In this document: positions 27,907 through 57,990 of the stretch, piece by piece
How positions within the stretch are numbered: position 1 is the stretch's first letter
How the letters are laid out: each line of letters opens with the position of its first letter
NCBI GenBank assembly: GCA_951406725.2
Contig: OX597835.1
Span: 34,906,001 to 34,970,000 of the forward strand
DNA: 64,000 nucleotides
Direction of reading: 5' to 3'
Source: Octopus vulgaris
Lineage: Eukaryota
The notes under the pieces: generated by a model
The model's database searches: none
The model's input: the letters and a program-made list of their open reading frames with translations, nothing else
What the model was told of the DNA's origin: nothing
Position numbers and translations under genes: made by a program

Positions 27907-28929
27907 CTGCAATGACACAAACACAAAAGGCATTAAATTAAATTACAATAAATCAAATTAAATCGTTAAGATCATGTTTAGTATTGGTTGAGTTCACTCA
28001 ACTCAGTGGTTCTCACCCCATGTCCATACGGCCCCTGGTGGGTCTATAGAAGATTTTATTGTTGAAATGTTATGTGCATTAAAACGATACAAAAGGTATT
28101 TTAATTATTTTATACAGACAATCCAACTCAATGACCTTTACTTTGGTCAGTTATGGTGAGACAGTGTCACGTGACAACTTTGCTGGGGCTGCCTGCTGGA
28201 GCCTATGCGGCAGGTATTTAAAGGGAGAAATTTGACAAGACAGTCAGTCACTGGCTGACACTCGCTGATGATACATCGAAGAAGCCAGGGAACAGAAGAA
28301 AGAAGACATGCACCCAACACCAGAGCTGAAGACACCTCCGAAAGGGGGGGCCCTGCCACGTTAAAACGGTAGAGGAGCAGGGGCCGAAACCGGACGTGGT
28401 TTCTCCTGATGATGTCTTGAGCTAACTGGATCCTATAAAGGAGCTGTTGTGGTAGCAGACCACGAAACACGGTTGTAATTCCTCCCCACTAGGCTGCTCC
28501 TGTCTTGACAAATCAAGAAAATAAGTTACGAAGATATTGCACAACTTTTGAAGCAACAGAATATAAAATACAAATTCAAGCATATTTATAAAACATATAA
28601 TATACATATAAGCAAACCTATTTCTATCTCAGTGCTGGTGCCACGTAATAAAAGCATCCAGTCCACACTGTAAAGTCGTTGGCATTTGAAATTGCATCTA
28701 GCTGTAAACACCTTGCCAAAACTGGCCTTGCCTGTGCTTGTGCCACATAAAAAGCACTGAGTCTACTCTGCTGGATGGTGTGGTGTTAGGAAGGGCATCC
28801 AAACATAAAAACCCTTCCAAAACAGACACAGAAGTCTTGTACAGGTTCCTGTCAAACTGCCCAACCCATGCCAGCATGGAAGGTGGACATTAAACAATGA
28901 AGATGATGATGTCTATATATGTATGTGTG

Positions 28930-38147: not shown

Positions 38148-39411
38148 TATATAAGAAAATAGTAAAGAGTGAAAAAACGACAGAAGGCTTAAATGTTAAA
38201 AAATATATATATTTGCGTCAAAATGTCTGGAGATATTGGAAAAATTTTTTCCTCCTTAAAATGACATAATTTTATAATTTTTAAAGAAATACCGGTTTCG
38301 CAGTTAGCTCTTCAAATTTCTTGTGACTTAATGTTTATTTTTAATAACGTAATCCTTGTATTTTTGCTACGGAGAGTTCTAAATAAGGGAAAGTAGTGAG
38401 TGATTTCTTCCGGTGTAAGGGAGATAATCGCTTAAAAATTTTTTTTCCTTTAGTGTGAATTTCTGTGTATTATTGAGTTCGGATAGTTGAGTCTGGGTTT
38501 GTACTTTTCAATGAAGAATGTTTCCTTATTTAGTCTAATTTGTGATGATGATCCGAAAGCACATTGGTAAAATGGAAAGATTAAAAATTGTGGTTGTAGT
38601 TGCTTTGCGCATTTCTCAATGTGTTCACTAAAAGGTATCATTCTATATTCTGGGAATGCAATCTGTTGTCGATGCAGTGTGCATCTACGTCTGAGTGATA
38701 GTCCCGTGGACCCCACGTAGTCTTGGTGGCAGCCCGAGCATTTAATGACATAAATTATGTTTTCAGAGGCACAAGTAAAGTTAGATTTGATCTTGAATTT
38801 CTGTCCCTCTTTAAAGAAGAATTCTGATCCTTCCAATAGGTTAGGACATGTTGCACGGGACTATCACTCAGACGTAGATGCACACTGCATCGACAACAGA
38901 TTGCATTCCCAGAATATAGAATGATACCTTTTAGTGAACACATTGAGAAATGCGCAAAGCAACTACAACCACAATTTTTAATCTTTCCATTTTACCAATG
39001 TGCTTTCGGATCATCATCACAAATTAGACTAAATAAGGAAACATTCTTCATTGAAAAGTACAAACCCAGACTCAACTATCCGAACTCAATAATACACAGA
39101 AATTCACACTAAAGGAAAAAAATTTTTAAGCGATTATCTCCCTTACACCGGAAGAAATCACTCACTACTTTCCCTTATTTAGAACTCTCCGTAGCAAAAA
39201 TACAAGGATTACGTTATTAAAAATAAACATTAAGTCACAAGAAATTTGAAGAGCTAACTGCGAAACCGGTATTTCTTTAAAAATTATAAAATTATGTCAT
39301 TTTAAGGAGGGAAAAAATTTTTCCAATATTCTCCAGACATTTTGACGCAAATATATATATTTTTTAATATTTAAGCCTTCTGTCGTTTTTTATTTCACTC
39401 TTTACTATTTT

Positions 39412-46130: not shown

Positions 46131-46941
46131 GTATCTATGTCATGCTGCATGCCTACCTACCAACCTACCTACCCATCTATCTATGTCTACCTGCCTGGCT
46201 GTCTGTCTCTCTGTCCGTAGGTTTGTCTGTCTATCTGTCTGTCTATCTGTCTTCGTACCTGATTTAATATTATTTTTCACTTCTTTTAACGTATTTGCAG
46301 AGATGTCGAAGTTGAAATAGCTCCGGCCGGGGACGAAACCGTGATCCCATCATTAGATTACCTTATATATTAAAAAAAAGAAGAAGAAATTCTTGAAGAA
46401 ACAAATTTCTTCAGACTCTCTTTATCTTTAATTTAACTATTTAGTAAATGTTCAGTTTATTCAATTTATTTTACCAAGTCAAATTTAATCAAATAACTTG
46501 TTTCCACATCTTACTCAAAACATTCTATCTTCTTATGTATGTATGTCATTATTCAGTTTATTTCAAGATTTCTTGCCAGTAGAGAAAGAACCGGTTTCTA
46601 ACCTAGATCCAAGGCTCCTTCATTGGAATTTCAACATCAACAACAGGGTATGTATGTATGTATGTATGTATGTATGTATGTATGTATGTATGTATGTATG
46701 TATGTATGTATGTTTGTATGTAAGAGACCAAAGTGTACGTACGCCGCTATATCTTATACATTATACATATATTTTATACATATATTTTATACATATATTT
46801 TATATATTTTATATTTTGTATAATAAATACAAAAATGGGACAAGAACGCAAAACATCCAGACATGTAAAACAAAAAAGAAAAACAAAATATCCAGACAGA
46901 CGATACGAGGAAAACAAGGACGGATCATTCGGAGTTTTCTA

Positions 46942-47014
46942 TCCTCAATCAAGTTCCAGATTATCTTTGCAATTTCGGCTGGTTATACTCGAGATTGCTC
47001 CAATCTGGCCAGCC
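46942..47014 (-). ncRNA. Candidate non-canonically permuted hammerhead, copy A
   Basis: Reverse complement: GGCTGG CCAGATT gga GCAAT C TCGAGT ataa CCAGCC GAA ATTGC aaagat AATCTGG a ACTTGA TTGAGGA. Confidence 0.65.
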
Positions 47015-47683
47015 CCAATGAAAAATAATCTAAGAGCATTACATTCCTTGGAAGAAAGCAGCGAATGTATACGAAACAAGAACGGAAAAACCCCCCAGAA
47101 ATGTTACACAAATATAAATAACAGGACATAACAACAGGTGTCTTTCGACTAAGGACGATTTAAATTAAGCTGGCGTGTGTATGTATGTACAAATTTGTAT
47201 GTTTTATGTATGTATTCTCATGCATATAGTTGCATATCTAGACATGCTCATATATATTTAAATGAAAAACTTCTGGCAAGTTTTACAGATTTTTACAGTT
47301 CCAGTAATGGATTGGATCCGTAGTCTTCGAATTAGCTTTCTCCCTTCTGGCTTTGAGAAGCCTAATTTCTCAAGATTGGTTGTATGAACTAATAAAGCAA
47401 ATCTCAACATGTTAATCACGACAAGCTAGGAATAGAAACTGTCGTTTGGATTTACCTAAAAATTATTTGCTTTCCGTCCGGATTTCCTTCCCGTTGTACC
47501 GCTTACGTGCAGAAGGGAACTGGCCACATTTTTGTAAAGTGCAAAGAATAGCAGATATATTGATACAGATGAGCGTGAAAGGGTTACATTCCTATGGAAT
47601 ATGTGCATGCGCGCGTGAGTGTGTGCGTGTGTTTGTGTGTGCATGCGTTTGTGTGTACTGAAATTATCAATACTAATATGATG

Positions 47684-52537: not shown

Positions 52538-52827
52538 TACTGGGAGAAGAAGAAACGAAACGAAACGAATCGAATCGACGCGAGGGCAGTCAATCATACA
52601 ATAGTGTAATAAATAAAATATATGCATACATACATACATATATGTACGTACCTACATCTACATGTATATATACATGCATATATAAATATATATACGTGAG
52701 TACAGGAAACCACAAATAGACGTAGAACTCAACGAAAAACGAAAACGTAAAAACAAGCATGGAACGGACCTTTTTTTAACAACGAAAAAACAGAGTACAA
52801 GACAAACTACACAAGGAAAAATACCCT

Positions 52828-52903
52828 TCATCAGCTGTCCCTAGTTCAACTCCAGCGTGTTTCGAAGGTGAGGACAGAACACGACTCGTCGAACTAGCCC
52901 TTC
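52828..52903 (-). ncRNA. Candidate non-canonically permuted hammerhead, copy B
   Basis: Reverse complement: GAAGG g CTAGTTCGAC gagt CGTGT T CTGTCC tca CCTTC GAA ACACG ctgga GTTGAACTAG GGACAG CTGATGA. Confidence 0.7.
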
Positions 52904-53104
52904 CTGCGAAGAAATTAAAGAAAATTACTACGCAGAGGGGTAAAAACAAGGAAAGAACAAAATGTGACACAAACAGGACGTAAAACAATGCAAATAAAAT
53001 TACAATATAAAATAAAAATACAATTAAAAAAAATACAATACAAGAAATAAAAACAAACAAGAAAACAAACAAAGAGGGCCTTTTTTTGCCTAGACGAGGA
53101 GAGA

Positions 53105-57326: not shown

Positions 57327-57748
57327 TTATTTGCCAACATAATATGGCAGTCCCAGTTGGGATGAATGTTACTGTAGTTTTAGCCTCAGGAAACATCGTC
57401 TCCAGCTGGCTATACGACACACATCTGTGTCCTTATATTTTCGAACAAGGGTGATTAATACCACCGCTGCGGACAGCGGTTTCTGGGTTACTTCTCTTCC
57501 TCGGCACTGCGAAAATACATATATATATATATGTGTGTGTGTATGTGTGTGTGTGTAAATATATATATACGTACACACACGTATATATATGCATATATAT
57601 AATAAATAATATATAATATATATATATATATATATATACATGCATATATGGGTACAGGACATCACCAACGGTGCAAAAAACATGAAATACGTAAACAAAC
57701 GAGAAAAAAAATGGAAAACGAGACAAGTAAACACAGAGAAAGGACCCT

Positions 57749-57814
57749 TCATCAGTTGTCGGCTCCTCATTTCGAGCATTCAATGACAATATGAGTCTTC
57801 AAAGACAGTTGCTC
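57749..57814 (-). ncRNA. Candidate non-canonically permuted hammerhead, copy C (brace helix partner missing)
   Basis: Reverse complement: GAGCA a ctgtctttg aaga CTCAT A TTGTC attgaa TGCTC GAA ATGAG gagcc GACAA CTGATGA. Confidence 0.6.
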
Positions 57815-57990
57815 CTATAAATTCTAAAATAGAATTTAGGATTTATGGAGGGTCAAAGTTGGGAACAAAAACATGACAATGCAGTCATACAAGGAAACCG
57901 AGCGAAAGCAAACATGGAGGGTCGTTGGACCAGAACGAGAGGAAAATAGTGAATGCTAGGAGAAACATTTTCTTAAAGAGAAAAGATAGA

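Follow-up and report, generated by a model that had tools for sequence, protein, structure and literature searches.

A split hammerhead layout in non-coding retroelement units of Octopus vulgaris

Strand order of the window copy and its relatives

The window, a stretch of 64,000 nucleotides of the Octopus vulgaris genome, carries on its minus strand the parts of a hammerhead ribozyme in an unusual order, and the question raised by this locus is how a core can be built when the 5' strand of stem II is detached from CUGANGA and lies upstream. A sequence-only reading had proposed four helices here, all of which were found at the claimed positions: stem II (GGCUGG, 47014-47009, with CCAGCC, 46982-46977), helix P (CCAGAUU, 47008-47002, with AAUCUGG, 46962-46956), stem III (GCAAU, 46998-46994, with AUUGC, 46973-46969, the latter after GAA) and stem I (UCGAGU, 46992-46987, with ACUUGA, 46954-46949, including one G-U pair). 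The AUC site, with C17 at 46993, and the core UUGAGGA (46948-46942; family form CUGAGGA) also lie exactly where they had been put.

In the block terms given in the available text of PMC10085705 (S for the site, G for GAAA and C for CUGANGA, the stem strands on either side being counted with each block), the 5' strands of stem II (47009..47014, G10.1 being 47014) and of helix P (47002..47008) precede block S (46987..46998), which comprises the stem III 3' strand, AUC and the stem I 3' strand with the predicted cut at 46993/46992. Block G (46969..46982; stem II 3' strand, GAAA and stem III 5' strand) and the 3' strand of helix P (46956..46962) follow, and the stem I 5' strand with UUGAGGA (46942..46954) closes the series. 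Stems I, II and III adjoin the core with G10.1-C11.1 and A15.1-U16.1, and a distal contact is made by helix P, which joins distal stem II with distal stem I. This strand order is that of a non-circularly permuted type SGC, opened between A9 and G10.1.

The bases 3' of the core form at most one pair with CCAGCC (duplex energy +1.1 kcal/mol vs -10.1 kcal/mol for the 5' strand), and stem II therefore has to use the 5'-most strand, as had been argued. Rightly, too, an ordinary type II hammerhead (order G-S-C) had been excluded, since S lies 5' of G and at most one pair is available downstream. The model was incomplete, however. It left the post-core bases without a partner, which actually form a further helix (IV), it missed a second one (V), and type SGC also had to be excluded. 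When flanks were cofolded, hairpin V ended at G10.1 and helix IV started within 3 nt of A9, the 5' strand of IV running into V. In the window copy the IV 5' strand (CAUUCG ... UUUCU) occupies 47053..47067 in this cofold and hairpin V 47015..47051, with its 3' end abutting G10.1 and one C-to-A mismatch; the IV 3' strand (AGAAA ... CGAAUG) at 46926..46940 begins one base past A9. All these strands are on the minus strand.

The motif is part of a non-coding, 5'-truncated retroelement copy with an AT-rich tail (46802..47180, minus; family A), which represents the 3' approximately 380 nt of a unit of about 780 nt, as derived from the distance between units in the tandem copies L024 and L026. Over this span it is 88-91% identical to other copies in the genome. 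In the 2.8-Gb genome, a search with a 381-nt query yielded 3,508 first-look candidates. Among the 40 that were scored, full-length copies were 88-93% identical to the query. The core formed by the family majority (CUGAGGA, GAAA, AUC) was fully intact in 24 of 36 copies. Position 3, for which the earlier reading had proposed a check for C or U, was C in 33, G in 2 and T in 1 of these 36 copies, so the U3 of the window copy is private decay, through which this copy departs from the C3...A9 core that the family majority retains. U3 opposite G8 weakens hammerhead cleavage, and the window copy, which has C3U and the mismatch in V, probably retains little or no ribozyme activity. C3 pairs with G8, and a natural covariation to U3-A8 is described in PMC3088659. 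The ribozyme reading is one for family A; the window copy itself carries C3U and further decay. Substitutions in family A affected 15/396 core cells (3.8%) and 273/5,131 flank cells (5.3%). Core and flanks have thus decayed at similar rates, as expected for dead insertions, and this counts against the ribozyme reading. Another repeat (46534-46720 and 47178-47286) encloses the family A copy at a (TATG)n tract and occurs in L027 as well.

Four mutually unalignable families with the split layout are present in the window. Besides A these are family B at 52823..52941 (minus, at 52878; intact CUGAUGA, non-coding unit of about 790 nt, 2,382 candidates), family C at 57743..57854 (minus, at 57790; a copy from which 11 nt are missing, among them the P 3' strand; 4,563 candidates) and family D at 28329..28418 (plus, at 28371; in the 3' UTR of a non-LTR retrotransposon (LINE), 2,336 candidates). 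The sequence-only reading had compared the motif with a "copy B", probably the motif at 52878. This is no alignable copy and belongs to another family: a BLAST search of 46751-47250 against the window returned a microsatellite and short matches only. What remains of the compensatory changes claimed from this comparison is that the pairings are kept with different sequences; they are kept between separate families, not between copies. In all, five families retain the core and the pairings in helices of differing sequence. A young family E was found at L126:4540-6455, where three units of about 857 nt each lie in tandem within (TA)n. It has 1,617 candidates, the 40 scored matches were all 100% identical over 181 nt, and the motif was intact in its tandems with 855-870-nt spacing.

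In family B a pyrimidine tract ending in CAG (52904-52920, minus) precedes G10.1 and resembles a splice acceptor; it is at the same time the 3' arm of V. Back-splicing as a way of rejoining A9 and G10.1 was rejected: AG stands before G10.1 in B and E, not in A or the Naiad-like copies, and no GU follows the core. Elsewhere in the window (38240-39321) there are nested near-perfect inverted repeats of 274 nt (100%) and 211 nt (98%).

Helices IV and V and the proposed fold

Among copies matching a family regex, helices IV and V both formed in 16/17 copies of A, 24/26 of B, 5/8 of C and 13/13 of D, as well as in 20/28 copies of the A superfamily and 1/4 Naiad-like copies. Shuffled sequences gave 28/480. 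In alignment A2, comprising 27 superfamily copies, 91.5% of the cells pair, compared with 26-53% in slid registers, and for helix IV the value is 85.8%. Thirteen of the 46 pairs were changed on both sides, a number as high being reached in 1 of 500 shuffles. Since the copies share kinship, neither shuffle count is a probability. These double changes fall into stem I (4/6 pairs), P (4/7), IV (3/14) and V (2/8). Stem III showed no double change in this alignment and stem II was fixed beforehand by the search pattern; covariation of these two therefore rests on the comparison between families. In a strand-swap comparison no foreign strand outdid the native partner in any of 15 cases, with B and Naiad-like copies sharing stem I and the C copy being mis-assigned at stem II.

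IV and V together are predicted to clamp the break between A9 and G10.1. We infer that they stack end to end, with A9 and G10.1 leaving one nick side by side. On this structural model we consider it quite probable that the element RNA folds into a self-cleaving split hammerhead of the order IV5'-V-II5'-P5'-S-G-P3'-I5'-CUGANGA-IV3', active at the level of the family. IV and V would stand in for the missing backbone link, their stacking would set A9 beside G10.1, and the usual core would then cut after NUH. In hammerhead chemistry G12 acts as the base and G8 as the acid. As the core strand is transcribed last, the ribozyme would assemble only after the whole motif has been made: a transcript through the element would be complete as a ribozyme once the core and the IV 3' strand are present, and would then be cut.

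It appears unlikely, in comparison, that the fold is real and either does not cleave or needs a protein helper, serving as a structural handle, e.g. for the reverse transcriptase of the element. This reading draws on the position of the break inside the catalytic core, on the poor in vitro cleavage of metazoan Penelope-like hammerheads reported in the available text of PMC4209133, on contigs across the site and on the 5' ends of truncated copies. None of the datasets containing the sequence is recorded as RNA, and in each of three runs guessed to be RNA one contig bridges the predicted cut. Depth 3' of the site rises in the contigs of these runs (34 to 318, 29 to 1,493 and 14 to 56); in a large run of unknown kind it increases about 2-fold. 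As other subfamilies share the core and contigs bridge the site, this rise is not taken as evidence. A unit-length return joint in two of the three guessed-RNA runs fits circles, tandem DNA or transcripts equally. Among 180 alignments of selected loci, 8 begin 0-19 nt after the cut vs 1-4 per neighbouring 20-nt bin; none starts exactly at the cut and there is no sharp truncation peak. Against a non-cleaving fold stands the retention of CUGANGA, GAAA and NUH over unalignable families and four phyla (see below), with every helix changing. Moreover, the related types SGC and CSG do cleave, according to the accessible text of PMC10085705.

An ordinary type SGC, in which stem II would form with the bases after CUGANGA (one base being inserted), leaving the upstream strand as a decoy or off-switch, is very improbable. 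The superfamily pattern that places the stem II strand upstream had 6,099 exact matches in the genome. The same blocks with this strand after the core, i.e. an unbroken block C with the stem II 5' strand at most 2 nt from A9, had none, and neither had the reversed control patterns. A descriptor of the core and stems I and III only, blind to stem II, was applied to the window and 40 arbitrary 10-kb stretches (464,000 bases), where it found 8 matches, 7 of them in S-G-C order, and none in each of three shuffles. Five of these 7 (three being tandem copies) have an upstream stem II and P, one has its stem II upstream but only a short P, and one is the C copy of the window, whose P 3' strand is missing and which was scored with a 4-bp downstream stem II. 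The eighth match has another order and no stem II. In B and C a downstream stem II of 4 bp, two of them G-U, is indeed possible (-3.1 and -2.2 kcal/mol), but in both the upstream version of stem II is the stronger one and leaves the downstream strand available for helix IV, which is stronger too (-7.4 and -8.7 kcal/mol). In the A superfamily and D, which allow 0-1 downstream pairs and have no pattern matches, it is impossible. The Rfam hammerhead families gave no match at gathering threshold in 6 loci and do not appear among the 150 weak matches listed of 258 in the window.

There is equally little to be said for a mainly inactive rod in which the upstream V strand pairs with the core and the hammerhead features are a vestige: the minimum-energy folds of the window copy alone are rods (z -1.1 and -1.9) instead of the split fold, as expected for a decayed and pseudoknotted copy, and UCCUUGG of family A is able to pair with CUGAGGA, but the pseudoknotted stem I has the clearest covariation and family E folds IV, V and II, with V flush on II and closed by IV (z -3.0).

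Retroelement context and possible mobilisation of the units

Copies of family A are 5'-truncated, end in AT-rich sequence or (TA)n and are also found as partial copies in tandem or inverted arrangement, which are insertion traits of the Naiad type. We found no ORF in the units and no reading frame with an N-terminal GIY-YIG and a C-terminal RT. Nor was there similarity to Naiad 3' ends beyond the common layout. Family A is likely a Penelope-like retroelement derived from Naiads; as the 3' ends cannot be aligned, the Naiad origin is deduced from layout and insertion pattern.

Canonical hammerheads are absent from Naiads according to the available parts of Craig et al. 2021 (PMC8557442), in which only "HHR_core" or "HHR_half_core" marks are given. 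For 24 of the 54 published consensi, named here from the file order, we inspected the terminal 250-600 nt by eye. The split order was seen in 7 of the 24, from four phyla: Obim, Ovul, Esco (with mismatches), Clytia Naiad-3, Morbakka Naiad-2, Pomphorhynchus (IV and V partly in view) and Beroe (stem I of only 2 bp). Four nematode and spider Naiads (Naiad_Hpol, Naiad-2_Nbra, Naiad-3_Nbra and Naiad_Smim) showed type CSG with block C intact, a type earlier reported from only two metagenomic sequences; no call was made for the remaining 13. The split layout would explain why Naiads were thought to be without such ribozymes. In the octopus genome the octopus Naiad motif had 103 exact matches, compared with 0 in controls, and no RT remnants were seen upstream of 6 Naiad-like motifs. 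The cyclic order of the strands is identical in the split form, SGC and CSG, and tandem duplication and loss could therefore interconvert them.

The family D motif lies about 300 nt past the stop codon of a non-LTR retrotransposon ORF, and an RT domain (E 9.5e-24) was detected upstream of another family D copy. The end of this ORF presumably encodes a CCHC finger and a restriction-like endonuclease, judging from its motifs; Pfam returned no match for its C-terminal part. Further family D loci besides the window copy are L114, L093, L099 and L206. By eye, stems I and II of family D agree with their counterparts in the acanthocephalan Naiad, which suggests that the ribozyme module may have moved between retrotransposon classes, Naiad and LINE.

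Non-coding tandem units each carrying one hammerhead motif, as described for non-LTR retrozymes, are found here as well. In such arrays, cuts would free monomer RNAs of 700-870 nt, with helices II, P, III and IV still keeping their two ends together, so that religation to circles would be favoured. A Penelope-like RT/endonuclease may then copy the unit RNAs in trans. A mobilising partner was not found among 10 GIY-YIG loci and 3 flanks. This search yielded a young element with a C-terminal endonuclease, without split ribozyme and without similarity to the units. It is a Penelope-like element (L213, L218:1180-1230 and L219) with many open 781-aa frames and GIY-YIG at the C-terminal end; in its terminal repeat a minimal hammerhead of type I can be seen by eye, with U3-A8 replacing C3-G8. 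We lean slightly towards the wider proposal that many Naiads, from ctenophores to cephalopods, use the split ribozyme as their standard one for 3' processing, that an unrelated LINE took it over, and that by way of circular RNAs it drives well over ten thousand retrozyme-like insertions in the genome studied here.

Comparison with known hammerheads and retroelements

In the available text of Eckert et al. 2023 (PMC10085705) block C is taken as uninterruptible, which leaves six possible orders, and type SGC is known only from metatranscriptomes. The split form breaks this three-block rule, which limits the known permutations to six, and places non-circular hammerhead permutations in animal genomes. 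The puzzle of Naiads "without hammerheads" becomes testable, as at least 11 of 24 3' ends appear to have permuted ones that descriptors missed. The opening between A9 and G10.1 may also offer a new attachment point for an engineered sensing domain. We found no description of the split form in the literature as far as its text was available, and passages of PMC10162972 and PMC6155905 contained nothing pertinent; hammerheads with additional helices exist (Weinberg 2015, cited in PMC13725137), and a precedent for inserted helices is possible. The split hammerhead is a real and abundant variant, apparently not described before.

The link between positions 9 and 10.1 has a known tolerance, and some hammerheads loosen it by one base: the CChMVd viroid hammerhead has one extra A between A9 and G10.1 (PMC3705267), and the minimal hammerheads of Penelope-like elements usually have one base in this link (PMC4209133). 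In the accounts available there, neither has a chain break or a two-helix clamp.

As to the elements, the Naiads described in PMC8557442 share with family A the (TA)n targets, the 5' truncation, the tandem or inverted partial copies and a ribozyme layout near the 3' end; family A differs in the absence of an ORF and in its unalignable 3' ends. Non-LTR retrozymes, for which a Penelope-like origin has been proposed, resemble the split units as non-coding tandems with one hammerhead each, but carry type I hammerheads, whereas the units found here, of 700-870 nt, carry the split form (bioRxiv 10.64898/2026.07.22.740005).

Closest in structure are two types from PMC10085705, as far as described in its available text. 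Type CSG has the same cyclic strand order as the split form; unlike the latter, it keeps block C intact and has no IV/V clamp. Type SGC (HRIMA-1) shares the S-G-C order, the full core, the distal helix between stems I and II and a linker of 1-4 nt between these stems (up to 7 in family C), whereas the split form is open between A9 and G10.1, has the extra helices IV and V, and is present in thousands of copies in animal genomes.
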